A DNA stretch of 62,794 bases, filler included, from Nemertoderma westbladi (Eukaryota > Animalia > Xenacoelomorpha): assembly GCA_032718475.1 (NCBI GenBank). It is 3 parts of 3 records of this genome, joined end to end, with 100 filler letters (N's around TTAATTAATTAA, not from the genome) between each part and the next. Parts side by side here need not be neighbours in the genome. Positions count along the whole stretch, not along the records: positions 29,185 to 51,583 come from JAUCBJ010006532.1; 2 more parts are not named here. One strand, 5' to 3'. Every line of letters starts with the position of its first letter. The stretch's first letter is position 1. The notes beneath the pieces were generated by a model. It did not search any database. It was not told the DNA's origin and saw only the letters and a program-made list of their open reading frames with translations. This document shows positions 5,641 to 54,007 of this stretch, one piece after another. The translations under genes and the position numbers were made by a program.

Positions 5641-5875
5641 GATTAACCCTGATTATTGGATATCGGTATTGGATATATATTGGATATTTATAAGGATATC
5701 GACAAACTCGACGCCTACCACTGCAAGGTGCAACGCGGCCTCTTACTTCTTGGGAACTATTTGGAGAATAATACACTACTGTATATCTACTCTCTGGTGG
5801 CACCCCAACATTATCGATCACTGCTTATCGGAGTTGCTATAGAACCTTAGTTAGAACACTTGATTGCCCTAGTCT

Positions 5876-15944: not shown

Positions 15945-18664
15945 TATGGTGGCTCTGAAGGGCCATGATTATAATTTGTCTTCATTATTGAAAAGTCGTG
16001 CGCACGAGATTTAAGAGCTGAAAAGTCGCGTGCATGAGATTTAAGAGCTGAAAAGTCGTGAGCACGAGATTTAAGAGATGAAAAGTAATGCGCATGACAT
16101 TTCAGTTTTAAACTGAAATCTCGTTCTCACGACGTTTCAGCTCTTAATTCTCGTGCACACAACTTTTCAGCTCTACAGTAATATACTGTTATCACATTAT
16201 ATTTTCTTTCATTCATTTCGTTCCGGCTTACGCCCCGGTGGCTATAATTAGTTAAACACAGAATAATAAAATGGTTTTGCACTGAATAACAAACAAACAC
16301 AAACACATCTAAGTAAAAATACCATAGAGGCACAGAGCAACACTAAGTAAAAATACCATAGAGGCACAGAGCAAACCTAAGTAAAAATACCATAGAGGCA
16401 CAGACCAACACATATATCGGAATGAATATAAATGAACATTGCTGGTCTACAAACATCATAACGAAATAAATTAACCATAATTCATTTATTAACCATTGCC
16501 GAGTTCAATTAAATGGCTAACACCCCGGTGGCTATATTAACTTTGGTTTATATAGTCCATAATTACTTCTTGCTTGGACACGAAATCAGTAGAAGTAGTA
16601 ACCCTCATATTTAATACACAAGTTTATAAACCAGGCTTTTATAAGATCCACGTCTGAGATGTCGTGCTGTTCACTGCACCTCTTTTGTTTTAGAAGAGAT
16701 TTAATTCCGTATTTATTGACACTCAGTGAAGGTAGTGATGGAAGATCTAGCAACCACGAATTGATTTTATATTGCGAAAATATATCTGTTTTGGTGCCCC
16801 CCCCCCCCCCCCCACCCTATTTTTTGTAAAACAAGCCAATAACTATATAGGGCAGTCAACCTATTGTTGCCTGTATTAAATACATTGTTAACAAGTCTGC
16901 AGTTGTGAAATCTGATTAAGGTCTCTAATTTGGGTTGGTTCAAAATACTGCAAAATGTCGCAGAGTCCAAGTAATTTCCAAGTCGGAGTGTTCTTCGTAA
17001 GCCTTTGCGACATGATCGTGCTACTTCAAGAAGGCGTGTTTCACCTAGTAGTAAGGCAGACCCATACAGAGCCGAGGGTAAGCAGATAGATGCCCATAGT
17101 TTTGAGACAATGGAAAGGGGGACCCTATCAACACATAGGCCTCTCGATTCTAAATTGCTCACTTGATTCCATAGTTTACTCTTGAAGTGTCTTGCTATAC
17201 CTTTATGGTTAAATGGAACTGGCATTCCTAGGAATATGAAGGATTACTCAGATTTAATTGTACGACCGTGTAGCTCCACATATCCCCCAAGTACATCTCA
17301 TTTTCATCTATCACTATGTGGTGTGATTTATTTGGACTAGGACTAGGATTTTTTCAATGTCTGTCTTCGTATTTCCAATAAAAATGATATCGTCTGCATA
17401 ACTAATCGCGCCACAAGGTAAATGTTTTATGTGTATTCCTAATCCACTGTTCTCTATCTCATGGAATAGATCAGCCATATATAGATTAAATAATATGGCC
17501 GATAGGATACCACCCTGACGTACGCCCTGCAAAAGATAAAATTGATTCTTGTGGGTTGCTTTTCCGGATTGATAATAGGAGTGAATGGCTGAAACCAAGT
17601 TATCTTGTACGCCAGTTGACCGCAGTTTCCAAAATAGTTGATTATAGGAGACCCTATCAAATGCTGCCTTTAGATCAATTGATAAAATATGTATCCTTGA
17701 TCCCCTTCTACTGAAATGGGAAGCTAGGTTGTTCACTAGATGGCTGGCAATTTCCGTATTAATGTTATGTTTGTATCCCAGTTGTAAATCAGCAAGTTTA
17801 GGGTTAATGTGGGTGTGCCAACTTCAGCTAACACAAGATATTCCCATAACTTAGCTATGGTGTTTATAATTGAAACTGGGCGATAGTTATCTTTGTCTTG
17901 TTTACTTTTCCATTCATTTTTGACTAGAGGTATAATTATAATTGATCCAAACGCCGTTGGTACCTTGCCTGTTGCCCGTACTGTATTGAAGATAAAGGCT
18001 AATTTGTCACACAGTTCGTCCGATATAGCATGATACAGATGTTCTGCCTGCTTTAAGAATGCCTACTTCTTGTGCGCACGACTTTTCAGCTCTTAAATTT
18101 CGTGCGCACGACTTCTCAACTCTTAAATCGCGTGCGCACACGACTTTTCAGCTCTTAAATTTCGTGCGCACGACTTTCCAACTCTTAAATCTCGTGTGCA
18201 CGACTTTTCAGCTCTTTAGTCACGTGCTCACGACTTTTCAGCTCTTAAATCTCGTGCGCACGACTTTTCAGCTCGTAAATCTTGTGCGCCAGACTTTTCA
18301 GCTCTTAAATCTCGTGCGCACGTCTTTTCAGCTTTTAAATCTCGTGTGCGCGACTTTTCAGCTCTTAAATCTCGTGTGCATAACTTTTCAGCTTTTAAAT
18401 CTTGTGCGCACGAGATTTCTGTTTTAAACTCAAATCTCGTGAGCACGAGATTTAAGATCTGAAATGTCGTGTGCGCGAGATTTGAGTTTAAAACTGAAAT
18501 GAAAACTTTTCAGCTCTTAAATCTCCTGCGCACGACTTTTCAGCTCTTAAATCTACTGCGCACGAGTTGTCAGCTCATAAATCTCGTGCTCACGACTTTT
18601 CAGCTCTTAAATTAGTTATGAAGAAAAAAATATAATCATGCGATGGCTCTTCAGAGCCACCATA
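15945..18664. mobile_element. IS3EU-like non-autonomous DNA transposon with ~30-bp subterminal arrays
   Basis: TIR TATGGTGGCTCTGAAG(G/A)GCCAT; 6-bp TSD CTATCC at 15939-15944 and 18665-18670; arrays of CACGACTTTTCAGCTCTTAAATCTCGTGCG in both orientations. Confidence 0.75.
16195..18050 (-). mobile_element. Degenerate RTE-X-like LINE nested inside the IS3EU-like element
   Basis: DLKAAFDRV, QGVRQGGILS, ISYADD and FIFLG motifs; C-terminal ALYGS; 3' UTR with short tandem repeats. Confidence 0.85.
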
Positions 18665-21268
18665 CTATCCACATAACATTCACTAATAATCAAAACTGAA
18701 AACCGAAACTCCAATGTAAACTGAAAACTGAAACTCTGGGCTACCTTATAAACTGCACTACCGTTATCAGGAAAGTCAGTAAGATGTTGCTAAGATTCAT
18801 TACAAAAAGAACAGTACCGGTAGGCGGGTATATCTTTTGTGTAGAGGTATAGCCTACATATATAGAGGCTACATGAAGGTAGGTGTAGCCTACATGTAGA
18901 TGCACGTGTAGGGTGAATGTAGGTAGGTGTAGTCCCATAGATATTAATGTAATTTATGTGTCAACTTGCAGTAACGTGATACACGGTCGTCAATCAGGAT
19001 GTATGGCAATAATCTCTGATCTCCACGGTACAATACGGTACATCAACCTGCAGACCTGTCTGCTGTCAGACAACAGGTTTTACTGCATACTGCAGTGCCG
19101 TATAAATATCAAACATCGCGTTCTGATTATACTAAAGTCCCTTACTCGTCATAAATATTAGGCCCTAATAAATTTGAATATGCTAACGCCACGAAAGGCA
19201 TCGTTCCATTAGATTAACTCGTTCTGATTTATATGTTTATTGAGTAAGAGTAACCTAAACAAACAGCCATCATCGCGGGGACTATAGTCTACCAGAAACC
19301 CTGACCCCCCCTCTGCCCCTCTTTATCTGTTTATCAACCATACATCCATGGGACTTGAACAGTACTTCAGCATTGAAATGTGTTGGACGTTTTGTTTTGA
19401 AAGTAAAAATATAGAAGTCTGGAAGTTTTGTTTGTTTTAATTTTTCAGGCAGTCACATTCCACCAACCAGCAACAGTCCCATCCCTTCCCACTATCCCGC
19501 AGACCACCACACTGTTTCATTATAAAGTATTCCCATCTCGATGATGGGAATTAATCAGTATTAGCAGAAGAGCATTGTTTGTGATTACCGGTACCCTAAA
19601 TCATGTTTGGCAGTTGTTCAAAATGGCAAATTCATTATAATCATAATTATACAGTAGGCATAGGCCTACTGGTGACTGGTATTCAGGCCTAATGTAATGT
19701 TCGAATTAGGCCAACTATGTAAGCCTCTGTACTGTAATATTTCCTTTCTTCTAAAAAAAATTGTCTAGGGTATCTGGCATATTTTATAAATTACGATATA
19801 CTGTATTTTCCCCCTAAATATCCTTCTTAATTGTACTGTACTGTATTGTACTGTATTGATAATTGTACTTCGCACTCATCCATCCTTATTTAACCTACGC
19901 TATATCAATTTGAGGAAGCTGTAACGCTACATTAATGAAAAAGGTCAGAGTTAAAATAAATAAAGTTCTTTAGGGCGACAACTTTTAGCCATTCCCGTAG
20001 TTCTTCTGTACTTATACTGTATATAAGCGACTTAATATACCGGTACTTCCTGTCGAAGAAATCTACAAACTTGAAATATGTAAACTTATGTACGATGTTT
20101 TACAAATACAGTATTTATCAGAAGTTCGAATCTTTTTAGCGTATTTTAAAAAAGTAAGCTCAATCCACTCACACAACGCTCTAATGGCGGGTGTTTCTTT
20201 ATTCCATCAATGATAAGGGTCCCGTTTTATGGAATACGTTGCCCCAAAACATTAGAGAAGTCAATAATAATATCATATTCTCAAAGTATCTGAAAAAGTC
20301 AAAGTACCTCCTGGGGGCTCTATAAATTAAGTACAATAGTTCCGGGGTCACGGGGTAGCAGGCGCGGGGTTACGCTTTCCATCCATTTTTGGTTCTTTTT
20401 TATTTTCTGTAAATGTGTAATATTCATTACCGAACACGCTGTCCCACCCCTCTTTATTTTATCATATTTTCCGGAAATATAAATTGCAGAGCTACTTTGA
20501 CCTACCCGGGCGCGGAGTCACGTAGTGCTAGCATTAGGTAATAATTAAGTAATATAAAGCCCTCTCTATAGCGCAGCTTTCAATAATTTCAATACCCAAA
20601 ACAATAAACGGTCTCATTAAGGAAAGGAATGGAGCAGGTTAGGCTGGGTTTTCTAACTAAAACAATAAACGACTTTCTCGTTTTCAATATCAGAGGGATT
20701 TATTAGAGGGACCAGAGGCAGTTTATAGCCATTTTGGGGAAAGGACCATAGGTTACAGAGCCAGTCTTATTCAGCCAATACAATAAATGATCTTGTTAAC
20801 AATACATCGAAAAGAGCAGCTTACAGTACTGAGGCGTGCTTTTCTAACCAAAACAATGAAAGATATCTTAATCTATTGAATGATATGAGAATTGCTAATT
20901 ATCTTAATATATATATATATATAATACTGTAGGCCTATATATGTTAAGATATATCTTAATATATTATTTGCCAATTATCATTTATGACTGTACATATCAC
21001 ATATCACAGTATCAATACGTATCACAGTGCTACTGTATGATTACTGTGCTAGGTACAGTGTATAAGTCTTTATAAGTCTAGTGCCGTGAACCTGAAATTG
21101 CAAATATAAACAAACAAGACAATTTATTCCCTACAGTAATTCTGTTGATTGATTATTGTACAGTAATTGAACTTATAGGCCTATTACTTGGCCTAAGCCT
21201 AATATTTTAGAACTTCTATCTGCTATTCTGTACACCTGTCTCAAAAAATATAAATATTATTTTCCGAT

Positions 21269-23032
21269 ATGACAACGAAGAGCGAAGCTCACCAACGTCC
21301 TGAGACAAAAGCTGTCCAGCTATACAAAGAAGAGAAGTACAGTGAATCGATAATATACTTCACTAAGTACCTGGAATCCAATCCTAATGATAAAGAGAAA
21401 AGAGTTGCGTATTACAACCGGGGCATGGCATACCATCATCTTGGTGAACACAGCAAAGCCCTGGTTGACAGCGAAAAATGTATCGAATTGGATCGCTTCT
21501 GGGCGAAGGGCTATAAGTGCAAGGGATTGGCATTGGAGGGATTGCAAAAACCTAGGGATGCCATGGAGACAGTTCTTGATGGCCAAAAGTTGTGCTTTTA
21601 TGTGGACCACAATTCCCGCACTGTTCTTGGTCCACTGATCAGACGATTGAATAAACAAACAGGATTTTTGAAGGGAGACTTAGATGAATTGGAGAGAATG
21701 GAGAATGAGAAATATTGTGTGATCTGCAAGTTGTTTGAAAATGACTTAAGAGGAAAGTTATTGTTGACTTGTAAGACTTGTAAAATGGTCAACTATTGTG
21801 GGAAGGAACATCAGAAGGATGACGTCTCGGGTCATGCTGAAGTGTGCAGACAATTGTTGCAAATGCGAAAGAAATCTGAGCAGATACATAGCGTACATTT
21901 GGTTTGGCAAGATTCAGAGAAAGATGGAATACTGTTTGTGATTGCTTTGGAGGTCAAAGGAGCAAAGGGTCAGCAGTTTGTTAACCTTATGCGGTTCGGT
22001 ATAGGTGTGATGGAAAAGAGAACAATCAAACTTTGGAATGATTTGAAAAGGAATGTGTTGCCACTTCATGGGTGTGGTGGTAATTTCTGCCCGGTAAGTA
22101 AGCCGACAATTGATCAGCTGAAAGACTGGAGTGACTGGTTTTGTCTCCCAAAATACAAGACTATCTTTCAACAAATTTACATGAACGAAAAATTTTTGAG
22201 AATGATGATGTTACCAGAACATGTTGGCAATGTTTGTCAAGACGCAAAGGAAATAATGACAGAAGCTCTAACCGACCCAATGTCTGCCTTCTATGTGATG
22301 AAGAAAATCAAACTTATAGAATCCTTACAAGGCAGCATATTACGACTTCATATAGTAGGTGCCGAGCCTACCAAAGAGTTACTAAAAGCCATGACAACTT
22401 CTTTGTTGCTCAGTTCTCTTATTGAACCATTGGTCCTTCGCATAGTGTTCATTGGGCCACTTCTAACAAGCTCCCCAGATGTAGTAGAGGATGGGGAGCT
22501 TGTATGTGCCTCATATGGGGGAACATACCAGGAGTATCTATTGTCTGGAGAATACAAAAAGCCAGACTGCATAATTGGCTTCTTTCCTGGTCTATATGAT
22601 CCAACCTACACGTGGACTCCAGTTGTGGCCCATGCAGTTTCTAAGTGCATTCCATTCATGATTACGTGCTGTTATCTGGATGACTACAATGAAACGAAGA
22701 ATTGGTTGATGGGAGGCTGTATGATGGAGCCTAATATACCAGTCGATTGCCAGAACCCCTTTGCGTCATGGTTTTTGAATCAGAATCCTCTGGGTTCTAA
22801 TGCAATTAAACAACGAAATATGTTCGTTATGTGCCTTTTAGGGGGCAATTTGGGAGAACTAGACCGATTTATTGATGCTCAAATTAATAACCACGATGCC
22901 CAAGATCATGCCGTCGACTGTGAAGTATCAATTAATAAAGCGACTATATTAGCAGCAATGATGAATAATCTAGTACTGTCTCCTAAATCTTTAAAGGATT
23001 TGATCCAACTTAAGAAACGTGGATTACTGTAA
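21269..23032 (+). CDS. TPR + MYND zinc finger + MSS51/ZMYND15-like C-terminal domain protein (587 aa, single coding exon)
   Basis: TPRs (AYYNRGMAY, WAKGYKCKGLAL); MYND CVIC..CKTC..YCGKEHQ..H..VC; LHIVGAE, IVFIGP, PDCIIGFFPG and NPFAS motifs typical of the MSS51 C-terminal domain. Confidence 0.88.
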   Translation: MTTKSEAHQRPETKAVQLYKEEKYSESIIYFTKYLESNPNDKEKRVAYYNRGMAYHHLGEHSKALVDSEKCIELDRFWAKGYKCKGLALEGLQKPRDAMETVLDGQKLCFYVDHNSRTVLGPLIRRLNKQTGFLKGDLDELERMENEKYCVICKLFENDLRGKLLLTCKTCKMVNYCGKEHQKDDVSGHAEVCRQLLQMRKKSEQIHSVHLVWQDSEKDGILFVIALEVKGAKGQQFVNLMRFGIGVMEKRTIKLWNDLKRNVLPLHGCGGNFCPVSKPTIDQLKDWSDWFCLPKYKTIFQQIYMNEKFLRMMMLPEHVGNVCQDAKEIMTEALTDPMSAFYVMKKIKLIESLQGSILRLHIVGAEPTKELLKAMTTSLLLSSLIEPLVLRIVFIGPLLTSSPDVVEDGELVCASYGGTYQEYLLSGEYKKPDCIIGFFPGLYDPTYTWTPVVAHAVSKCIPFMITCCYLDDYNETKNWLMGGCMMEPNIPVDCQNPFASWFLNQNPLGSNAIKQRNMFVMCLLGGNLGELDRFIDAQINNHDAQDHAVDCEVSINKATILAAMMNNLVLSPKSLKDLIQLKKRGLL

Positions 23033-26510: not shown

Positions 26511-28688
26511 ATGGAGGCGTGGAAACAATGTAGCTCGTGGCTGCGAGCTTTAAAGGTCTGTGCTAACGAGGAGTGGGACAGGGGGGACGCCTTTGGATTG
26601 GCCCAAGACCTTCGGGATGGTGTGTTACTATGCCAACTCATAAACATCATCTTGCCGGGGTCCATCGGTCCACGTGACTACAACATAACTCCTAGGATGT
26701 CTCCCTTTCTTTGCAACAGGAATATACAGACGTTCTTGGATGTTTGTTCAAGTAAATTCAAGTTACCCTCGAAACACTTATTTGAACCCCCGGACTTGTA
26801 TGATCTTTACAATTTCAAGAAAGTTTTGCTCACCTTGAGCAAATTAAGCCAGTGCCCTCAAGTTTTGAAATTAGGTTTCCCCACATTTTCGACGAGTTCT
26901 CAAAGTAAAGTTACTAAGGGAGTTCCAAAATATGAGGAAGAAGACATTTATGGAACCTTCCCAGGATTGGCTGAAACCAACGCTTTGGAAGACGAAGAAG
27001 AACCCATATATTATGTTAAACGTGATGATGATGAAGATGATATTTATGAGAAAATGGGTCTCGTAACTGCAATAATAAAGTCGACTCCAAAAGGATCAAC
27101 CATTCCAAAAATCGGTATTCGCGACAAATGTATCAACGAACTAATCCAATCCGAAGAGAAATATGTTCAGGTATTAAATTCTATTCGTGTTCATTTTATA
27201 CAAAAACTCAATAAAGACTTGGATGATGCAGTGATGCGAACAATTTTCTGTAATTTGGAAGAGTTATATAAGGTGCATGAGGGGTTACTTGGTGACATGA
27301 AGCTCGCGTTGAAAGATCCAAATAAGCCGGTAGCCGAGAGTCTTTTAAAGTGGGGGAAAGACTTGCTCAAATATGGTGAGTATTGTTCCAACTTACCTGA
27401 TGCCTTTAATGAGGTCGACGATCAGCAGAAGGATAGTAGAATAAGAGAAGCGATACAGAATTGTGAACAGATTGCCAATGGTTGTAGTTTTCGTCTCAGA
27501 GACCTGTTAACGGTCCCAATGCAGAGAATTCTTAAATACCATCTGATAATACGAGATCTAAAGAAAGAAACCCCAGAGGGACATCCAACATATAATTCGG
27601 TGCTAAATGCCCTTGAATCTTTAGAAGATGTTGCCTGTTATGTGAATGAGGTTAAACGTGATTCCGAGAATTTGAAGTTCATTAAGAATGTTGAAGCTGC
27701 TCTTAAGGATTACAATGGGAGTCCCTTGAAGATGTACGGTAGACACCACAGAGATGGTGAGCTAAGAGTACAAGAAGGATTAAACAAGTCTTCCAGTGAA
27801 AAGCGGTATATATTTCTATTTGACGGGGCGATTGTAATCACCAAACTAAATAACGGCACGTATGTTTTCAAGAAGACCATACTGCCTAAAGAATTCGGTA
27901 TGGGACCACGGACTGTCGTTGGACGCGAGCAGGGATCTTGGAGTTACAATTGTTTTAATCTCGTTTCAAAACAAAATCAGATAATTTTCCACGCGAAAAC
28001 GGCTGAACTTCGAAACAAATGGCAGTACGATTTCGAAAAATGCTTCAACAACATTATGCCACCTGCACGTAATTTTAATGCTCACAATTTTGAATACTTC
28101 ACCTTCAACGAGCCAACTGACTGCATGCAGTGCGGTAAGTTATTCCACGGTTTGTTTTTTCAGGGATATAGATGCAGCGGATGTTTGGTGATAATGCACA
28201 ACCGATGCATTGAGAAAGATGTGGATGGTGCGTGTAAAGAACCGTTTCCAGTGAATTCACCTCCGTCTGTACCGGAGCATAACGCGGCATCTTACGATCG
28301 CCGCGTTTCATTACCACCTCCAGATGAGCTCTGGTTCGTTGGAGATATGTTACGAGATGACTCCATAAAACTTTTCAAAGGCCAACCAGATGGAACCTTT
28401 CTCATCCGAACAACATTTAAAGAAGGTAAATGCGAATACAAATTGGACGTAATGTGCAACACGGTTCAACACATACTTATAAGATTCGATAACGAATTAG
28501 GAGTGCCACCTAACTGCTTTTTGACCCCAACTATTAAATTTAGCACGATTCACCAACTGGTCAACTATTACTCGGAAAACTCATTGGAACCGAGTTTTGC
28601 CACGGTTAAAACTCGGTTACTGTTTTCAATAAAGGAACAAATGGGCTACAAGAAAAAGTTGTCACGATTTAAATCAGAACCAGCATAA
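26511..28688 (+). CDS. vav: Vav-family Rho/Rac guanine nucleotide exchange factor (CH-acidic-DH-PH-C1-SH2), single coding exon
   Basis: MEAWKQC..W and LRDGVLLCQL (Vav CH); EDIY, EPIY and DIY acidic tyrosines; LRDLLTVPMQRILKYHL (DH); HNFEYFTFNEPTDCMQC (C1); WFVG..GTFLIR (SH2). Confidence 0.95.
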   Translation: MEAWKQCSSWLRALKVCANEEWDRGDAFGLAQDLRDGVLLCQLINIILPGSIGPRDYNITPRMSPFLCNRNIQTFLDVCSSKFKLPSKHLFEPPDLYDLYNFKKVLLTLSKLSQCPQVLKLGFPTFSTSSQSKVTKGVPKYEEEDIYGTFPGLAETNALEDEEEPIYYVKRDDDEDDIYEKMGLVTAIIKSTPKGSTIPKIGIRDKCINELIQSEEKYVQVLNSIRVHFIQKLNKDLDDAVMRTIFCNLEELYKVHEGLLGDMKLALKDPNKPVAESLLKWGKDLLKYGEYCSNLPDAFNEVDDQQKDSRIREAIQNCEQIANGCSFRLRDLLTVPMQRILKYHLIIRDLKKETPEGHPTYNSVLNALESLEDVACYVNEVKRDSENLKFIKNVEAALKDYNGSPLKMYGRHHRDGELRVQEGLNKSSSEKRYIFLFDGAIVITKLNNGTYVFKKTILPKEFGMGPRTVVGREQGSWSYNCFNLVSKQNQIIFHAKTAELRNKWQYDFEKCFNNIMPPARNFNAHNFEYFTFNEPTDCMQCGKLFHGLFFQGYRCSGCLVIMHNRCIEKDVDGACKEPFPVNSPPSVPEHNAASYDRRVSLPPPDELWFVGDMLRDDSIKLFKGQPDGTFLIRTTFKEGKCEYKLDVMCNTVQHILIRFDNELGVPPNCFLTPTIKFSTIHQLVNYYSENSLEPSFATVKTRLLFSIKEQMGYKKKLSRFKSEPA

Positions 28689-29084: not shown

Positions 29085-29184
29085 NNNNNNNNNNNNNNNN
29101 NNNNNNNNNNNNNNNNNNNNNNNNNNNNTTAATTAATTAANNNNNNNNNNNNNNNNNNNNNNNNNNNNNNNNNNNNNNNNNNNN
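29085..29184. other. Assembly gap with artificial six-frame stop linker
   Basis: N-run, TTAATTAATTAA, N-run; 100 nt in total. Confidence 0.98.
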
Positions 29185-30453
29185 CGGGACAGCGAGCTGA
29201 TCGCGCTGTCGCCACAACTTAATGACGACGGGATTCTAGTAATGAATTCTAGGGTGGGATACAACAACAGCATAATGATACCACCGAAACCCATCATTAT
29301 TCCCACAGGATCGCCAATAGTCCACCAGATTATCTGGGACTCCCATAAGTCGATATTGCACGGGGGCACCAACCGAACCCTCACGGAGATAAGGAGGACC
29401 TTTTGGGTCAAACAGTTGAGGAAGAAGGTAAAAGCGGTAGTGGGGCAGTGCCAGACCTGCCGACGAGCGAAGAAGGAGCGGGCCATACAAGAGATGGCGC
29501 CACTACCGGCGAGTAGAGTGGGACAGCATGGCCCGCCATTTACGCATTGCGGTGTGGACATGTTTGGGCCGATAAAGATCAAGGCGATGCGGCACACGGA
29601 GAAACGCTACGGCATCATCTTCGTATGTAACAACACGCGGGCGGTAGGGATAGAACTCGCCCAAGATGCAACCGCATCAGCATTCATTAATGCCTTAGAA
29701 AGGTTTAGAGACCGCAAAGGTGGGACGATCGCAGTGATATACAGCGACAACGGCACCAACTTTGTGGGCGCAGAGAATGAGATGGCAGAGGCCTTGGACA
29801 TCTTGGAAGGGGAGGAAGTCAAGGCGGCCATGAGACGACGACAAGTAAAGTGGGAGAGAAGGATGCCGTATGCACCACATACACTAGGATGCGTCGAGAG
29901 ACTGGTGGGCAGTTCAAAGCGTCTAATGACGAAGCTAATGAACACCCACATGGTCACAGAGGACATCTTGAGAACAGTATTAGCGAAGTGTGAGGGTATC
30001 ATTAATAGCAGACCACTATATCCGGAGAATGATGACCCTGAATCACTAGACGTGCTGACGCCTAGCCATTTTCTAATGGAAAGGCCAGCGACCATCGATA
30101 TGCGGGGTGTAGATCCAGACGACGTACACTCCCGCCAGAGTTGGAAAGTCGCTAAAGCTATAAGCGCAGAGTATTGGAGGAGGTGGGTTGAAGAATACCT
30201 ACCCACGCTCCATAAAAGAAGCAAGTGGAGGAAGCCGAATAGGGAGTTAAGAGAGGGAGATCTCGTAATCGTTACGGATGATACTATCATCAACAACCAA
30301 TGGCGGTTGGCGAGAGTTGTAGGCACTTACTCCGACGAGGACGGAAGAGTCCGATCGGTAGAAGTGCGGATAGGTGGTAAGATAGGTGCGAAGGACAGAA
30401 AAACTTACAGGAGAGCTGTAGGGAAATGCTGTCTGTTAGAAGGGGCACCTTAG
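29185..30453 (+). CDS. BEL/Pao polyprotein C-terminus: H2C2 integrase, DDE core and DUF5641-type tail (5' part lost in the gap)
   Basis: H..ILHGG..CQTC; GVDMFGP; YSDNGTNFVGA; GCVERLV; INSRPL; LTPSHFL; WRRWVEEYLPTL; DGRVRSVEV. The frame is intact. Confidence 0.95.
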   Translation, partial: RDSELIALSPQLNDDGILVMNSRVGYNNSIMIPPKPIIIPTGSPIVHQIIWDSHKSILHGGTNRTLTEIRRTFWVKQLRKKVKAVVGQCQTCRRAKKERAIQEMAPLPASRVGQHGPPFTHCGVDMFGPIKIKAMRHTEKRYGIIFVCNNTRAVGIELAQDATASAFINALERFRDRKGGTIAVIYSDNGTNFVGAENEMAEALDILEGEEVKAAMRRRQVKWERRMPYAPHTLGCVERLVGSSKRLMTKLMNTHMVTEDILRTVLAKCEGIINSRPLYPENDDPESLDVLTPSHFLMERPATIDMRGVDPDDVHSRQSWKVAKAISAEYWRRWVEEYLPTLHKRSKWRKPNRELREGDLVIVTDDTIINNQWRLARVVGTYSDEDGRVRSVEVRIGGKIGAKDRKTYRRAVGKCCLLEGAP

Positions 30454-30579
30454 TGGAGTTAGAGAAGAGTTTAGTCGTCCAAGATTTGGACTGAGGGGGG
30501 TGGGATTGAGGGCGAGACGCCCTTCCCACACAAAAATTGAAAATAAAAATAAAATCATAATATACAGTAGGTACGTAAT

Positions 30580-31200
30580 TAGTAGGCAGAAGTTAGTCAG
30601 TAAGAAGGTACGTAGTACCTAGAGTTAGTTAGCTAGTTAGGAGGTACGTAGTACCGTCAGTTAGTTAGTTAGTCAGTAAGAGGGTATGTAGTACCGTTAG
30701 TTAGAGAGTTAGAGGGTACGTAGTACCATTAGGTAGGGAGTTAGAGGGTACGTAGTACCGTTAGGTAGAGAGTTAGAGGGTACGTAGTACCGTTAATTAG
30801 AGAGTTAGAGGGTACGTAGTACCATTAGGTAGGGAGTTAGAGGGTACGTAGTACCGTTAGGTAGAGAGTTAGAGGGTATGTAGTACCGTTAATTAGAGAG
30901 TTAGAGGGTACGTAGTACCATTAGGTAGGGAGTTAGAGGGTACGTAGTACCGTTAGGTAGAGAGTTAGAGGGTACGTAGTACCGTTAATTAGAGAAGAGT
31001 TAGAGGGTACGTAGTACCGTTAGCTAGAGAAGAGTTAGAGGGTATGTAGTACCGCTAGTTAGAGAGTTAGAGGGTACGTAGTACCGTTAGTTAGAGAGAG
31101 AGTAAGAGTTAGAGGGTACGTAGTACCGTTAGTTAGAGAGAGAGTAAGAGTTAGAGGGTACGTAGTACCGTTAGTTAGAGAGAGAGTAAGAGGTAGAAGG
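30580..31200 (+). repeat. 32-bp tandem array with a 96-bp higher-order unit, inside the retrotransposon
   Basis: Unit TTAGAGGGTACGTAGTACC(A/G)TTA(GG/AT)TAG(G/A)GAG; three variants cycle in order across about 30709-30995. Confidence 0.95.
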
Positions 31201-31668
31201 GTATATAAGATATAGATATTAGTTAGCAGTTAGTAGCGAGAGGGGGGCATATATGAGTACAGCTGGGTAAATCGTGTGGCCACGCGATGCGACGTATACT
31301 GCTGTACTGCACAGGCCCACAGAGTAGGCCAGAATGTGGATTAGAGAATAGAATAATCCATAGGCAATAGTAAGTAGTAGGACAGTAGAATTAAAACTAA
31401 ACTAAAATAAATAGAATAGGGCCGAAAGTTACAAATTATGGCAACACTAGGAAAGTTATTCTGGAACGTAATAAAAGTAACTGACAGAAATTGAAATTAG
31501 GGTGTATTTACTAGCTTCAGAATTAATTAGTAATAATTTAGGCTAAAAGGCGCAGTTGAGTAAGGAATTGGCCATTATCGGACCGTACAGAACATCTTAG
31601 ATACATCACTCATCTGTATTGCGCCTTGGTAAGGCACCACCTTGCAGGTGAGCGAGTGAGTGTTCGGA

Positions 31669-32949
31669 ATGGCGAGCAAATTGATCAGAAAGAGAAAGGC
31701 GGAGTCAGGAGGAAAGGAGATACTGGTGGATTTCACCGAGAGGCATCCGGAAGAGAAGACGAGAGGATACTACGAGAGGTTGGAAAAGGGTCACGCGGCA
31801 CGAGCGCTGCAGGATCACTTCCGGGAGATGCACGAACAGCGGCTGGTCGGGACCTACGGGACGCCGTCACTGGACAACGCGATCATCCAACACTTCCACT
31901 ATGTGGTGAAAGGGGACGAGGCGAAGTTCGGGATTCCGAAGTACCCGAGGGAATCACCGAGGAAGGATTGGAAGAGATTCATAGAGTCCGTCAACAGGGG
32001 AGGATATATGATCCTAGACGACGAGGGAACCGTGGAAGACGAGGAGGGTTCGAGACGAGGATCAGCGGGGTCGGCCAGGACCATACTCCTACATTTGGCC
32101 ACGCCAAATGGGGACATCTTCTTATTCGATCTAGGAACGTATGGGAAGAAGGACGGGCCGAAATTAAACCGGTTGCCGAAAGCGGTGCAAGTCTTGGTAA
32201 GAGAGAAGTCGACGACGAAAGTGGGATCGGCGATTCGCGAGGACGCGGAGAGAATCATCGGTCCGGATGCCACCAACCTCCTGGATATGCAGAAGGTCTT
32301 CATGGCTATGACGGCACCGGATGGGTTGGGGGTAGTCGGGAACACAGGCCAATGCGGGGCGGTGGCAATGGGCCAACTGTTGGGGCTCGTATGCCACAAA
32401 CCGATGGACTGGGGGAAGTTCAGGGAGGAATACGGAGCAGAACTAGCGAACTCGCTAAAGTGGGGAGCGAGACCGGGAAAGCAAGAGGCATATCAATTCC
32501 GCAGAGGAGCGATAAAGGTATATCAGAAGCGATATATCCTGCAGGAAGATTGGATGATGATAAGTTTGCTTAACTTATTCATGACCGTGGTTATCGAGAG
32601 GGAACCAGCGGCATTTCTGTTATCGGGATCACCCCTAAGCTACAGGAGAGCCTTTAAAATGGCCTTCGACGGTCTGGTAGACCACCCGGGGCTGAAGGGC
32701 GAGTCGGTGTACTACAACAGCCGACATCTGATAGACGGGGAGACAGATACGCCGTATCAGAGATGGGAGCAGCTAGAGACGGATAGACGAGAAGCAAAGC
32801 GACTGGAAGAAGTCGCTAGACGGGAGAGGATAGAAGCAGAGGAGAGGGAGGAGGAGGCCAGGACGCAGAGTTACGGCTTCGAGGAACACGCAGGCTTAGA
32901 CGAACTTCGTTGGACTTCATCGGGGAGTTCGGGGGAGTCTCTAGGGTGA
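31669..32949 (+). CDS. Accessory ORF: DEDDy 3'-5' exonuclease-like protein (WRN/EXD/Mut-7 type)
   Basis: ILDDEG (ExoI DxE); LLHLATPNGDIFLFDL; LPKAVQVLVREKSTTKVGSAIREDAERI (ExoII); LLDMQ; QKRYILQED (ExoIII-like). First ATG at 31669. Confidence 0.72.
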   Translation: MASKLIRKRKAESGGKEILVDFTERHPEEKTRGYYERLEKGHAARALQDHFREMHEQRLVGTYGTPSLDNAIIQHFHYVVKGDEAKFGIPKYPRESPRKDWKRFIESVNRGGYMILDDEGTVEDEEGSRRGSAGSARTILLHLATPNGDIFLFDLGTYGKKDGPKLNRLPKAVQVLVREKSTTKVGSAIREDAERIIGPDATNLLDMQKVFMAMTAPDGLGVVGNTGQCGAVAMGQLLGLVCHKPMDWGKFREEYGAELANSLKWGARPGKQEAYQFRRGAIKVYQKRYILQEDWMMISLLNLFMTVVIEREPAAFLLSGSPLSYRRAFKMAFDGLVDHPGLKGESVYYNSRHLIDGETDTPYQRWEQLETDRREAKRLEEVARRERIEAEEREEEARTQSYGFEEHAGLDELRWTSSGSSGESLG

Positions 32950-32952
32950 TAA

Positions 32953-33945
32953 TTGGGATGGACGGTGGGATCGCCGAAACAGTCGACGTCGGGGTTGCAA
33001 GCGATGCCCATACCAGCGGGCGCCGAAGGCGACCAACCGCCAAGGAAGTTAAGGGAGCTAGAGGGATGGAGAGCTACGGGCGAGAGCCAAGGCGGGAAGG
33101 GACATAGTGGATCCATCGGGATACCGGGGTTGGAGCCACTGCCAGAGGAGGAGGAGGACGACGACGAGTTCGGAGGGGTGTCGCCCATCGAGAGGATTGG
33201 CCACTCGGACACGGACTGGGTTGGCGGGAGAGTGGTGACGGCCAGTGGGGCAAGGGCCTTCTGGGATAGACCCGACAAGCGGGCCTGGGTGCACGAGGAG
33301 CCGGCGATGGATTTCGCGGGGAGCACTATCAGGTTGGGCGAGCAACCGGGGACGGCACCACAGGTAGTATTCGGGGAGACGATGCCCGAGAGGGGCGGAG
33401 AGATCGACGTAGACAGGGACACCAACGTGCAGAAGTTCGCCTACCAGCGACTCCACAGACCGCGGAGATCACTTGGGACGAAAGACGACGTGGGGCGGGA
33501 GACATTGGTACTTGGTTGCGACTACTGTGGGAGACAGACCCACCAGGAAAGGAGCTGCTTGTACCGGTTCCAGAAGGGAACCTTTTGTCTCTACTGCCGC
33601 GAGTCGAGCCACAGGATGGGGGCGTGTCCACGGTTGCACAACCGATGTCCGAAGTGCAACTTTCGGGGACACTACGGACGCCAGTGCGACTGGATGGACG
33701 ACGAAGAGAAGTTCAGAAGATTTGAGGAGTGGGCCGACGTCGGGGCCATGACGCGCCAGCGCATGAAGGCCCAGGAGTTCAAGTGGGGTTTCTTCCTTAT
33801 CAATCAGGAGGCTCACATGGAAATCATAAAGCGGAGGCTACCGTTTACCTATCAAGAGGTAGCAACGGCGGCGTCGTATGCCGGAGTGATGAATACACAA
33901 AGATACTTGGACAGGTGGACGCCACAGAACCCGAGGGGAGTTTAG
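32953..33945 (+). CDS. Accessory ORF with three CCHC zinc knuckles, in frame with the exonuclease ORF
   Basis: CDYCGRQTHQERSC, CLYCRESSHRMGAC and CPKCNFRGHYGRQC are all perfect CX2CX4HX4C; separated from the upstream ORF only by TGA-TAA. Confidence 0.8.
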   Translation: MGWTVGSPKQSTSGLQAMPIPAGAEGDQPPRKLRELEGWRATGESQGGKGHSGSIGIPGLEPLPEEEEDDDEFGGVSPIERIGHSDTDWVGGRVVTASGARAFWDRPDKRAWVHEEPAMDFAGSTIRLGEQPGTAPQVVFGETMPERGGEIDVDRDTNVQKFAYQRLHRPRRSLGTKDDVGRETLVLGCDYCGRQTHQERSCLYRFQKGTFCLYCRESSHRMGACPRLHNRCPKCNFRGHYGRQCDWMDDEEKFRRFEEWADVGAMTRQRMKAQEFKWGFFLINQEAHMEIIKRRLPFTYQEVATAASYAGVMNTQRYLDRWTPQNPRGV

Positions 33946-34933
33946 GGATTTCTTGGCGGAGCACGTGCCGCGGCGAGCAATGAAGATGATCCTATGGGAC
34001 GCCACCAGAGGGAGACAACAGGGCCACTCGGAGGGGCCACCGGCGAAGCGATATCGGGCACTAATAACACCAGCGCCCAAGGAGCCAACAACCGGAATCA
34101 GTAGGGAGGTGGCGGCGAAAGTCCGAAGGCAGAAAGCGGATCCCAGAGGAGCGGTAGTAACCAAGAAACGACCCAGGGAAGAGGACGACAGAGGGAACTA
34201 TCTCCAGAGGGACAAATAGGTTCCCAGGGCCGGGGGGAGAGAAACTGAGACTTGGACGTGGTACGCCTGGAAGGCGCCGCGTGGGACGTACGAACTATTA
34301 AGTACAAATTAAACTGATGCAAAATAATAAATAAGTGCAATTATATGTACGTACGTAGTAATCAGTAGTTTAGTAATAAAATATATGTTCGAAGTAAGTA
34401 CTATAGTCATACAACCTTTCTCAATTAGCTACTGGGACTGGGGGGCTAACTGACTATGGCACTAGGGACGAGACGCCAGACGATTTCACACTTCTTGAGT
34501 GCGACGGCACAGGAGGGGGGGGGGGGGGGGTGAGACTCGTCAGAAGGGATAAGGTAGTCAAAGAGAGACGGAGTAATAGTGCGAAGTGCGGAGAGAGTGC
34601 AGATGCAATTCTAGTGTGGGGAGGGAGGAATAAGAGGCTGAGTGAGGGACGAGGAGGTCCGAGGGTATGCGAGAGTTAGGGTGAGAGTGGAGAAGGGATA
34701 GGGCGAAAGTGTTGGGGAAACAAAAGTCGTGTGAGAAGTGAGCGCGATCGGCCCGACATGGGACGCCAGGCATACAGGGTAGCGTTATCATACCCATAGG
34801 GAGCGGCCTGGAAAGCCGGCTCCGGGAGAAAAGAATTCCACCCCACACCCGATACTAGATCGGGATCCAGCGGGATTATAGCGCACTTTAGGTGGATGCT
34901 ATCTTCTCACCGGGAAGATAGCATGGGGGGGAG

Positions 34934-35590
34934 TGTTAGCTTATTCAATCCCGCTAACCCAAACCCTAAAGTAAGCCGATAAGCAATATTGGGGGCCACG
35001 AAATTGGATAATCAATCACTCGTGTCACCCCAACAAAATGGGAAGGAGAAACACACAATGAGGGTCAGGGGCCAAACCCCTAACAGAGAGAGAGCAGGTG
35101 GAGTGAACGGGAAAACTCCAAAGGGCGCCAACAAGGGTATCAACCAATCAGAGGGGGGAAAGGCATCGATTAGGTAGAGTAACAAGGCCAACCCGTGCAA
35201 TATAGCCAGTTGGCAGTAATCATTTACTCAGTTATCTCAGTGCTAGTTACTGGTGTTACTGTAGTTTACAATAGTTTAGTTAGGGAAGTACCGGGACTTC
35301 AATTACCGTCTCCCGCCTTCCATATACAATAACTTTATCCACCATTATACCGTATCTATATCCATATACCCAAACATTATACACATCGAATAACCGAAAC
35401 TCTTTTACTCTTCACACACGGCGGGGACGCGTGAACTGACAAAACCGGATAAACCGGGATCCCATCTGGATCCCGTCACACTCGGCACCCCACTAAAACC
35501 AAACCCACTGCCCTCGGCGCCCAGCAATACCCCCACTGCATCTTTGTATCCTCGTTTTGTTAAATCGAACCATGAATTAACTAAAATTAT
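34934..35590 (+). repeat. Putative 3' LTR of the BEL/Pao element
   Basis: Begins with TGT directly after the PPT; TATA-like AATATAG followed by TCAGT motifs near 35200-35240; no clear ACA end and no 5' LTR available for comparison. Confidence 0.6.
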
Positions 35591-35975
35591 CAATTGATAT
35601 CAATTTCCGCCCATGTGAAGAATACCAGGATTTCACTTTTCGGTCGACTTTTTATTGGAATTTTATATATGAAGATTATTTTTTTTTTTTAATTTATCTT
35701 TATTAAGTGTTTCAAAGCGCTTATTTCTGTCTTATAACCTGTACATATACTAATTTGTTTATTGTTTTGGTTAGATTCAGCCCTTCTGTGACCTGTATTT
35801 TTGGTAAAACCTGGTATTCTTCACATGGGGGTAACTGCAAAGTGAAATATAACTGCAGAAAGTCTGGTATACTTCACATGGGCCTCAATTTCAGTTTCTC
35901 TTAATCAATTTTAACAGAAATTTAAATTGATAAAATATCAATTGATAAAATATCAATTGATATCAATATCAATAG
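35585..35975. mobile_element. Small foldback/MITE-like element
   Basis: CCCATGTGAAGAATACCAGG versus CCTGGTATTCTTCACATGGG; ATCAATTGATA palindromes at both ends; partial copy at about 37975-38080. Confidence 0.55.
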
Positions 35976-36510
35976 ACAAGCCTGTTGATATGGCTCAACA
36001 TTTTTCATATTGTGGTAATGCACAATTATCAATCCATCTTTTCAATTTTATTGATATAATTAATAAATAATAATAATAATAGTTTTAAATATTTATTTTA
36101 CATTTTAGCTACACTAACTACAGTAGTTAACATTTACACTTTACCGTATTGCTGCATCGCCTATTAACGAATACATCACACCCACTGAGATTGAGACATA
36201 ACTGTACAGTAGGTGTAACTATGAGTGTGTCATACCATATGTCAATATTGCGGTATATTATACACTACGTGTATCACATGCGAAAACTGCGGGGAACTTT
36301 CTTAACCTTGGCGTGTCTCATTGTGGCTCACAGGCTGCGCTGGCATGTTATTTTATTAGCCACATCAAAGCTCTGAGTTGACTTTGGCAACGGATGTAGT
36401 TTCTTACTAATTAATCTGTGAAACCAATTGATTATAGTCAAATAACAACCCCGTCAGACAATAATTATTGTATATACAACTAATAATTTCTACTGTCTAC
36501 GTAACGTTTA

Positions 36511-51583: not shown

Positions 51584-51683
51584 NNNNNNNNNNNNNNNNN
51601 NNNNNNNNNNNNNNNNNNNNNNNNNNNTTAATTAATTAANNNNNNNNNNNNNNNNNNNNNNNNNNNNNNNNNNNNNNNNNNNN
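51584..51683. other. Assembly gap with artificial six-frame stop linker
   Basis: Same 100-nt structure as the first gap; the contig breaks at a HINE-like 5' end (ACACGTTCGTGG). Confidence 0.98.
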
Positions 51684-53050: not shown

Positions 53051-54007
53051 ATCATCACGGCTAAGCTATGAAAGGTATTTGCCGCATTGCAGGTTTTTTG
53101 CCTTACCATGTCCGCTAAAACACGTATATAGCAGAATGACTTTTATGTCCGTTAAAACACCTGTAAAGGTACCTTGCGGGCGAGGGGAATATATATACAG
53201 TTAGAGAACCTTTTTAGAGTATTCCAGCGCCTGGGGGGAAACTGGATTGCGAAGCAAAAGGGCCAGTTATATCCCACAGAAGCTTTTACAGATATAATAT
53301 CATAATACCCAGTAAAATACTTACGGTTTACACCATGACACGTAGTATAGATTAAGGTAACAGAGACAAAGTTATGAAACCGAAACCAAATTCGACACAT
53401 ACATCCATAGAATCCAGAAATAGGTCATGTAAAATATAACAATATAATATTTATTTATTACAAAAAAAGAAAACAAATTACTAAATAATTCTAGTAAGAG
53501 TAACTAACAATAAACTTTATTGTAAAATTTATAATAACATATATGATTGACGATACCAATAAATTTTGGGTGTTTTTCATTCATTTTGGTTTAGATAAAA
53601 TTTGATTTGGGGGCCATTTCTTTGTTTATTTTATGTTGAATAATTATTTTTTTGGTGTTCGGGAAATTTTTTGTGAAGCCCAAAAAAATGTTTTTTTGGT
53701 TCCCGATATTTTTATGTTGTGACATTGTTTGAATTGATGAGATATATTTTTATGTGAAATTTTTATAAATTTTGCTGACTTTAATAGCCTAAAAGAAACT
53801 ACCTGCTTGCTCAGTGTGGGCGATTACCCTAACTTTTATTAACACCGCGTGATAATACCAAGTTGGAAACTTCTAGAGATTTACATCTGGTATATTTTGC
53901 ATCATAATCATAAATAAGTTCCCCAAAATAACGCGAATATCTCGAGATATGCGAATATTATTCATTAAATCAATCAATATATCTATAAAATTAGTAATTA
54001 ATTAAAC

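Follow-up and report, generated by a model that had tools for sequence, protein, structure and literature searches.

Two open reading frames, ORF-A and ORF-B, in Nemertoderma westbladi assembly GCA_032718475.1 seem to be accessory genes carried by a BEL/Pao retrotransposon with many copies and are situated where an envelope gene would be expected. ORF-A is a predicted DEDDy 3′-5′ exonuclease, whose homology to WRN/RNase D exonuclease domains is seen at profile level, and ORF-B carries CCHC zinc knuckles. Taken as a whole, this anatomy, i.e. a real DEDDy-fold cargo of a BEL/Pao-type element that is under selection, is considered highly probable. Features that look new are the BEL/Pao host, an orphan sequence, purifying selection on the cargo, and a knuckle partner similar to trypanosome RNase D.

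Organization of the element

The window, which is the whole stretch of DNA analysed, consists of 62,794 nt; positions 29,185–51,583 represent JAUCBJ010006532.1. The C-terminal part of pol (positions 29188–30453, + strand) contains a BEL/Pao-type integrase. It ends, as in BEL/Pao elements, with an HHCC zinc domain, a DDE core (D124-D187-E237, numbered from 29188) and a DUF5641 tail, and Pfam searches show matches to DUF5641 (E-value = 9e-25), Integrase_H2C2 (7e-13) and rve (6e-4). DUF5641 is generally regarded as a BEL/Pao marker. The DUF5641, Pao and integrase labels are found together in one annotation row in PMC13424557. The sequence-only reading of this DNA called the integrase intact. The frame is open, with a stop at 30453, but an assembly gap (29085–29184) removes the 5′ part of the integrase and everything upstream, thus the element is not shown intact. 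In BEL/Pao elements the order is PR-RT-RNase H (Peptidase_A17)-IN, and a PBS for tRNA-Arg or tRNA-Gly follows the 5′ LTR; of this series the window has the integrase end. A homolog search with the integrase gives one metagenome fragment of 34% identity, which is too short to reveal cargo.

ORF-A and ORF-B lie between the integrase and a polypurine tract (34511–34530, +), which is directly 5′ of the TG of a candidate 3′ LTR of 948 bp (34531–35478, +). The LTR, TG...CA by sequence, may end up to ~100 bp further. It is supported by a raised summed contig depth at 34830–35279 and by contig loose ends that diverge past the terminal TCA; no 5′ LTR is found within the window to pair with it. The polypurine tract, previously placed 4.4 kb past the integrase, is ~4.1 kb after the integrase stop as measured. 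Purine content is 0.59–0.63 from the integrase to the LTR and 0.45–0.53 in the flanks, in agreement with the earlier observation that the cargo is on the same strand as the integrase and shares its purine skew. No Rfam match is present in 29185–36000. Like Belpaoviridae (BEL/Pao; PMC8742986; PMC3118150), the element has DUF5641 at the end of pol, a polypurine tract and an LTR candidate in the 0.2–1.2 kb range; it differs from them in the long interval between integrase and polypurine tract, which holds two non-env frames.

The cargo frames show no env family match in Pfam and other family profile searches. The best 19-residue Kyte-Doolittle value is 1.35 in ORF-A and 0.36 in ORF-B, i.e. there is no strong hydrophobic segment in either, and an env-like ORF3 is ruled out by the absence of a signal peptide or transmembrane anchor, as was originally proposed. 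A host gene is rejected on account of copy number and location within the element.

ORF-A and its predicted exonuclease domain

ORF-A (31669–32949, +) is 426 aa long and consists of an N-terminal part of ~95 aa, a predicted DEDDy-fold domain and a charged C-terminal helix (residues 362–411), the helix being seen in the single-sequence model. The predicted WRN/RNase D-type DEDDy exonuclease domain covers residues 96–320 (31954–32628, +), based on hhalign, an alignment termed A1 and a guided model. The motifs described earlier are all present and in the order given: ExoI, ILDDEG (residues 115–120); LHLAT..G.IFLFDL; ExoII, KVGSAIRED, with D192; and an ExoIII-like QKRYILQED (residues 286–294). In alignment A1, D117 and E119 of ExoI are situated on invariant columns, as are K184, W265, Q286 and Y289, and D192 is on a near-invariant column. 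The conserved Trp is flanked by large insertions in ORF-A. The ExoIII signature Y-x3-D is not found: Y289 is kept, but the Asp column is occupied by E293, with D294 adjoining. By its sequence ORF-A is taken to carry a variant of the DEDDy motif and is not counted among the canonical active exonucleases. A literature search gave no paper on an Asp-to-Glu change at ExoIII. Nine of 16 conserved columns are matched, a weak test by itself as 3/150 shuffles do as well.

Profiles give a stronger signal. One built from 17 bacterial domains (11 WRN-like, 6 RNase D), a set that is WRN-exonuclease-like, scores ORF-A at 13.3 bits in an HMM search, and none of 2,000 shuffles equals this. With hhalign, the ORF-A domain aligns over its full length to the targeted profile (probability 89.6–91.6, E-value 2e-6 to 8e-7). 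The hhalign score is 43.4, whereas 150 shuffles give 12.6 ± 2.0 (maximum 18.75) and the highest-scoring of 78 natural decoy segments reaches 19.9. The exonuclease call, initially made from motifs, thus gains whole-domain homology in a targeted profile, far above shuffles and decoys.

General searches show no relatives. There is no Pfam match to the exonuclease domain, even at E = 10, and no match to ORF-A in Pfam, PHROGs, NCBIfam or PDB sequences. No homolog is found among proteins of near and shorter lengths or in metagenome and viral contigs, and 1.84 billion representatives give 0 matches at E = 0.001. Sixty-one Bacteroidota-phylum genomes yield only weak matches, in three of them (E-value 0.07–0.6). 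The bdelloid rotifer ORF3 sequences discussed below are returned by none of the ORF-A homolog searches.

A single-sequence structure model of ORF-A has a pLDDT of 37 and no fold match. The alignment-guided model has a pLDDT of 74, but exonuclease sequences supplied the alignment, so its structural matches are partly circular. These consist of Nibbler, EXD1, Egalitarian and WRN (Z 11.8–12.6; 10–17% identity), with Nibbler and EXD1 tied as best (Z 12.0–12.6) and Nibbler at Foldseek rank 1; T. brucei RNase D (TbRND) is also among the top matches (Z 12.5, identity about 16–17%). Ranks are tied within 1 Z unit, and domains of RNase D, WRN and polymerase proofreading are among them. Because the structural matches tie, no donor of the domain can be named. 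Profile and guided model together suggest that ORF-A is of the same DEDDy subfamily as the Nibbler/Mut-7, EXD1, Egalitarian, EXD2 and WRN domains. These are host genes, however, whereas ORF-A is found on a mobile element.

ORF-B and the double stop

A double stop, TGA-TAA (32946–32952, +; stops at 32947–32952), separates ORF-A from ORF-B and, as indirect evidence suggests, is probably common to the whole family. ORF-B (32953–33945, +) is in the reading frame of ORF-A, has its first ATG at 33004 (313 aa), and consists of an acidic low-complexity N-terminal part followed by three C-x2-C-x4-H-x4-C knuckles (33517–33687, +). The knuckles, at 33517–33558, 33586–33627 and 33646–33687, are exact; three occur in 0/20,000 shuffles and one in 2/20,000. 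ORF-B displays a weak match to Pfam zf-CCHC (E-value = 0.02) and, in the PDB, weak matches to nucleocapsid proteins of retroviruses and to TbRND (E-value = 0.18 for the latter); its knuckle part shows no homolog among longer proteins. Three perfect knuckles in frame after the nuclease, as previously reported, are thus present, but in a separate open reading frame, and the single nuclease-plus-knuckle protein that was envisaged is contradicted in the window's copy by the two stops. The best-scoring GT donor-like site predicted in the region overlaps the double stop (at 32946) and agrees with 6/9 consensus positions. Among candidate in-frame acceptors in ORF-B, the one at 33458 has the best pyrimidine score. 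There is no readthrough-type RNA structure 3′ of the stops (z = +0.82).

Copy number and selection

The cargo is part of a high-copy family. In two DNA runs, X1 and X2, 12,537 and 7,132 contigs, respectively, align to the cargo. Summed contig depths in X1/X2 are 57k/49k for ORF-A, 53k/44k for ORF-B and 78k/56k for the integrase, values that are of the same order but do not represent a copy number. The four runs that match the integrase are also those that match the cargo. Coverage of ORF-A in run X4 is far thinner than that of the integrase and ORF-B; contig depth is no basis for ranking the genes. Deletion joints through the cargo, among those listed, have a depth of only 16–421.

Variant counts refer to the best-supported 40 of 835 rows. 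Among the differences listed for ORF-A, 27/32 are synonymous (crude omega 0.05–0.08, P = 2e-13 to 4e-10); for the integrase, 29 of 39 listed are synonymous and 10 are other. ORF-A thus appears at least as constrained as the integrase among listed differences. From these sequence comparisons ORF-A is under purifying selection. The common difference among copies at the Glu293 codon is synonymous.

Relation to known systems

The Juno and Vesta elements of bdelloid rotifers are Ty3/gypsy-type. A 2017 paper reported DEDDy ORF3s in LTR retrotransposons of bdelloids (PMC5408684); thus, on whether the cargo is undescribed, which had been left undecided, the kind is known and the BEL/Pao host looks new. 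The DEDDy ORF3 of Juno, Vesta and Athena/Terminon (PMC5408684; PMC6431247) is, like the window's cargo, an RNase D-like extra open reading frame between the integrase and the 3′ LTR. Both the bdelloid ORF3 and ORF-A are without a transmembrane segment and have an altered acidic motif, and the function of both is predicted. The bdelloid elements, however, are low-copy and are not BEL/Pao (GPY/F motif, PMC5408684), whereas the element here is BEL/Pao-type and high-copy. The acidic motif is given as DEED in the text available of PMC5408684 but is D-E-D-E in ORF-A, with Asp in ExoII and Glu in ExoIII. The same part of that paper describes no knuckle open reading frame after the nuclease, where the present element has ORF-B. 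The ORF3s whose variation was examined there are the env and GDSL types, which proved neutral (PMC5408684), in contrast to the purifying selection on ORF-A. Since 2017, nuclease cargo of LTR retrotransposons has been on record for low-copy rotifer elements alone, and the case presented here adds a second superfamily. Thousands of sequence variants and a purifying-selection signal, unlike the rotifer case, make the role of a retroelement nuclease testable.

The other likeness is to TbRND (PDB 7c42), where a DEDDy exonuclease precedes a group of CCHC knuckles that hold RNA (PMC7797062). TbRND is one polypeptide with four knuckles and a canonical DEDD and is a mitochondrial guide-RNA trimmer; the cargo, in contrast, belongs to a mobile element and consists of two stop-split frames with three knuckles. 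A single polypeptide that joins exonuclease and knuckles, as in TbRND, is not found in the window's copy. The likeness is probably convergent. The knuckle partner suggests convergence on an exonuclease-plus-CCHC design, which the TbRND paper calls very unusual (PMC7797062).

Proposed role and alternatives

It is tentatively proposed that ORF-A and ORF-B together hold single-stranded RNA and trim its 3′ end; the element's own RNA would be the most likely target. The cargo would be expressed from a subgenomic RNA, as with other ORF3s. Two-metal catalysis would be carried out by D117, E119 and D192, with Glu293 or Asp294 as the fourth ligand. The knuckles may guide RNA into the catalytic centre in the manner of TbRND, with ORF-B acting as a separate subunit or joined by a splice that removes the stops. 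Substrates would be host-added tails or frayed 3′ ends of element RNA, and trimming would keep this RNA fit for packaging and reverse transcription. For the bdelloid DEDDy ORF3s, RNA 3′-end processing and a silencing role are both discussed, and Rodriguez et al. rank 3′-end processing of element RNA first (PMC5408684). Several observations go against the mechanism. In TbRND the ExoIII Asp, Asp230, binds metal directly (PMC7797062), and ORF-A has Glu at this place. Also, stops part ORF-A from ORF-B, and the two products would have to meet. The lack of a contig that spans from integrase to cargo, described below, counts against it as well.

Nibbler and EXD1 are small-RNA pathway proteins, and their tie as best structural match to the guided model is consistent with an anti-silencing role, in which the nuclease over-trims or destroys host piRNA/siRNA precursors before 3′-end methylation and frees the family from repression. 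The abundance of the family in X1 and X2 also fits, and Rodriguez et al. (PMC5408684) note that DEDDy open reading frames might track higher copy number in Juno1/Juno2. However, the tied ranks span RNase D, WRN and proofreading domains, two further DEDDy-carrying bdelloid families are low-copy (PMC5408684), and copies without cargo, which look rare, could more easily profit from a cell-wide benefit; this role is judged unlikely. Alternatively, the Glu in the ExoIII Asp column, retained across copies, may cripple catalysis, leaving a pseudo-nuclease adaptor that binds element RNA and is linked by its C-terminal helix and the knuckles to transport or particle assembly, as in Egalitarian and EXD1. 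Both are among the top matches of the guided model, the insertions on either side of the conserved Trp point the same way, and EXD1 and Maelstrom are called inactive DEDD derivatives that still bind RNA (PMC5408684). Of the four acidic ligands, though, ORF-A keeps three, the Tyr that serves as general base is present as well, and the change is conservative with Asp294 adjoining. Dead DEDD derivatives usually lack ExoI residues, which ORF-A retains. An adaptor is regarded as unlikely. Editing of DNA ends, where cDNA 3′ ends are trimmed or proofread in the particle before integration as by WRN-type or polymerase proofreading domains, would agree with the top single sub-profile being WRN-like (6.8 bits, 0/2,000 shuffles) rather than RNase D (1.8 bits, 6/2,000), although this comparison is uneven with sets of 11 and 6 sequences. 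The ORF-B knuckles resemble nucleocapsid proteins too. Yet the score with a profile of Pol I proofreading domains is no better than background (−1.4 bits, matched by 138/2,000 shuffles), and a separately translated open reading frame would have no obvious route into the particle. DNA-end editing is considered improbable.

The region between integrase and cargo bears on a further reading, also of low probability, that the cargo belongs to a different, non-autonomous LTR element or nested fragment and is a chance neighbour of a BEL/Pao integrase whose own LTR would start at ~30507. Just past the integrase stop there is a conserved motif, seen in sequence and contig depth (30466–30527, +), with a G-rich PPT-like run and then TG, and the bin 30481–30528 has ~4x the summed depth of the integrase. 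A minisatellite of 32-, 40- and 42-nt units (30591–31203, no strand assigned; Tandem Repeats Finder) follows, and because of it no contig of the examined runs spans from integrase to cargo; positions 30528–30600 were masked in the contig comparison. The missing 5′ LTR would also fit. However, depth is high upstream of the TG, loose ends before 30466 are integrase-like, and the motif is common to contigs with differing integrase ends, as would be expected of sister families. The region past 30507 is unlike the LTR candidate (local score 35), and no second 5′ LTR or PBS is seen ahead of the cargo. The uniform purine bias, and the similar depth of integrase and cargo in the same four runs, also argue for a single element.

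Trimming of the element's own RNA remains the preferred role. Were the target host small RNA, the cargo would represent an element-encoded counter-defence against piRNA silencing. A full version of that idea, an element's own small-RNA-destroying machine with an orphan DEDE-type exonuclease, a splice donor on the stops that switches between a bare nuclease and a knuckle-guided form like TbRND, and a counter-defence that explains the very high copy number, is given little credence.

Reading frames of the cargo

The cargo, the region between the integrase and the candidate 3′ LTR, consists of two plus-strand frames in the same phase. ORF-A runs from an ATG at 31669 to a stop at 32949 (426 aa). 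The double stop TGA TAA (32947–32952) separates it from ORF-B, which occupies 32953–33945 (330 codons, first ATG at 33004). All exonuclease-like motifs lie within ORF-A and all three CCHC knuckles (33517–33687, plus strand) within ORF-B, so the single nuclease-plus-knuckle protein of the sequence-only reading is contradicted for this copy. The knuckles themselves are exact, and none of 20,000 shuffles reaches three. The absence of a transmembrane segment, also claimed earlier, is borne out by the hydropathy of both frames, where no segment of that strength is found.

The N-terminal part of ORF-B has a coding-like base bias. The GT that scores best as a donor-like site in this region overlaps the TGA TAA and in-frame acceptors are present inside ORF-B, thus a fusion of the two frames by splicing across the stops is possible, judging from these predicted signals. 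No readthrough-type RNA structure was found after the TGA TAA. Differences found only in the window copy stand at near 100% in the difference tables, yet the rows listed (the best 40 of 835 for substitutions, 12 of 143 for indels) include none at the stops, which indirectly suggests that the double stop is common to the whole family.

Indels near the 3′ end of ORF-B differ between copies, so its C-terminus may vary by copy. An open frame at 33893–34219 (plus strand) with basic NLS-like patches overlaps this end. A 337-codon frame in another phase (31560–32573, plus strand) overlaps ORF-A, shows no family match, and is probably a by-product of purine bias.

ORF-A as a predicted exonuclease

General searches with ORF-A (Pfam, PHROGs, NCBIfam, PDB, 1.84 billion representatives, and metagenome and viral contigs) gave no relative, and a single-sequence structure model was uninformative, with no fold match. 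The motif idea was therefore tested directly with PF01612 profiles built from members in bacterial genomes, of which the short type matches the WRN and EXD2 exonuclease structures. A 17-domain profile scores ORF-A at 13.3 bits vs a maximum of 3.8 in 2,000 shuffles, and a 52-sequence profile at 10.8 bits vs a maximum of 4.4; with the Pol I subset profile alone ORF-A is at background. hhalign aligns residues 100–315 across the whole domain (probability 89.6%, score 43.4); the highest control scores are 18.75 (150 shuffles) and 19.9 (78 natural segments). The DEDDy exonuclease call thus stands above all controls in both tests, and the nuclease identity of ORF-A is well supported.

In the alignment of ORF-A with WRN/RNase D-type domains, D117, E119, K184, W265, Q286 and Y289 occupy invariant columns, D192 sits in a nearly invariant one, and the ExoIII Asp column is occupied by E293. 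The conserved-column count alone is weak, as 9 of 16 columns match and 3 of 150 shuffles equal this. A structure model based on the alignment (pLDDT 74) matches Nibbler, T. brucei RNase D, E. coli RNase D, EXD1, Egalitarian and WRN, with Z 11.8–12.6 and rmsd 3.2–3.8 over 160–190 residues. As the model is partly circular, these values indicate fold compatibility rather than independent proof, and with the matches lying within about one Z unit they name no donor. The structural comparison with DEDDy nucleases thus agrees for the guided model only.

Selection on the cargo

Of the best-supported 40 of 835 difference rows, not a random sample, 32 fall in ORF-A and 3 in ORF-B; the other 5 lie outside both frames and were dropped. 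In this set, 27 of the 32 ORF-A differences are synonymous vs 23–31% expected (P 2e-13 to 4e-10; crude omega 0.05–0.08), at odds with the neutral evolution that would have spoken against a functional cargo. Two of the three in ORF-B are synonymous, a number too small for a judgement. The integrase table (best-supported 40 rows, 1 non-coding dropped) has 29 synonymous differences among its 39 coding rows.

The element and its probable link to the cargo

The integrase frame (29188–30453, plus strand) matches Integrase_H2C2, rve and DUF5641, and is the sole basis for the putative BEL/Pao assignment. It begins at an assembly gap, hence the window lacks gag, RT and the 5′ LTR. A spacer containing a G-rich motif and a 600-bp minisatellite leads to ORF-A. 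Downstream of ORF-B are a polypurine tract (PPT; 34511–34530, plus strand) and a plus-strand sequence that fits a 948-bp 3′ LTR (TG...CA).

The cargo was found in part in six public runs, and contigs of four (X1, X2, X4, X6) were compared. Contigs on 31230–35700 number 12,537, 7,132, 236 and 21, and those on 29185–30600 number 5,047, 2,548, 98 and 5, respectively. In X1 and X2, summed depth averages 78k and 56k for the integrase, 57k and 49k for ORF-A, and 53k and 44k for ORF-B; summed contig depth does not measure copy number, and the source sample may be X1 or X2. To an order of magnitude, this shows a large family in which integrase and cargo are roughly equally abundant. Depth is higher across 34830–35279, as expected of an LTR, and contigs part ways beyond the terminal TCA of the candidate LTR.

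None of the contigs from the four runs spans the minisatellite, so the integrase-cargo link consists of this one assembly, the depth and the composition (purine content 0.59–0.63 from integrase through LTR vs 0.45–0.53 outside). The earlier placement of the cargo in a BEL/Pao element agrees with the similar depth and continuous purine bias, and the unbridged minisatellite leaves it partly supported. The cargo is real, under selection and probably borne by the element; that it belongs to a separate nested element seems quite improbable.

A G-rich PPT-like motif directly after the integrase stop (30466–30527) has high summed depth and is common to contigs with differing integrase ends. It may represent a conserved cis element, or a PPT relic predating cargo gain. 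An AT-rich block 5′ of the PPT (34308–34380) contains three polyadenylation-like hexamers, which could terminate a cargo mRNA ahead of the LTR. A short inverted repeat lies just within the candidate LTR end (35455–35476).

Possible function and published elements

The best-supported reading is a knuckle-assisted 3′–5′ exoribonuclease, in which the ORF-B knuckles would hold RNA near its 3′ end while the ORF-A domain trims. In T. brucei RNase D, according to the portion of the report consulted (PMC7797062), knuckles hold nucleotides 5–9 from the RNA 3′ end and four acidic residues bind two metals; the ORF-B knuckles weakly match this protein and retroviral nucleocapsids. The element's own RNA is the favoured substrate, since constraint equals that of the integrase and cargo deletions look rare. 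A role of the cargo as an anti-silencing factor is rather unlikely, and a catalytically weak RNA adaptor slightly more so, while trimming of cDNA would be a distinctly less probable activity than either.

DEDDy ORF3s are described in bdelloid Juno and Vesta elements and Terminons (Rodriguez, Kenefick and Arkhipova 2017, PMC5408684, in part), and likewise for Terminons in the accessible text of PMC6431247. For BEL/Pao, the ICTV profile (PMC8742986) gives only gag, pol and env-like genes, as do the consulted sections of de la Chaux and Wagner 2011 (PMC3118150); the excerpt of PMC3985635 mentions only RNase H and integrase of BEL/Pao elements. A literature search, with subscription journals and Repbase reports outside its scope, found no BEL/Pao exonuclease ORF.

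Other features of the window

A Vav-like gene (26511–28688, plus strand) is a single 725-aa ORF without introns, with CH, RhoGEF, PH, C1 and SH2 domains; SH3 was not matched. Two further long uninterrupted host-type ORFs, both on the plus strand, carry TPR, MYND and MSS51_C (21254–23032) and PR/SET with C2H2 fingers, PRDM-like (54006–55952). The presence of three genes without introns in 63 kb suggests that the genome is intron-poor or that these are retrocopies. The Vav-like and PRDM-like genes indicate that the host is an animal. Broken frames of LINE type, for endonuclease and reverse transcriptase, are found at 5873–8821 (plus strand) and 17314–17823 (minus strand). The N gaps at 29085–29184 and 51584–51683 share an identical central 12-base all-frame stop linker, an artefact and not biology. 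A MITE-like repeat with terminal inverted repeats occupies 35608–35885, and 104 X1 contigs connect it with other flanks at 35608.
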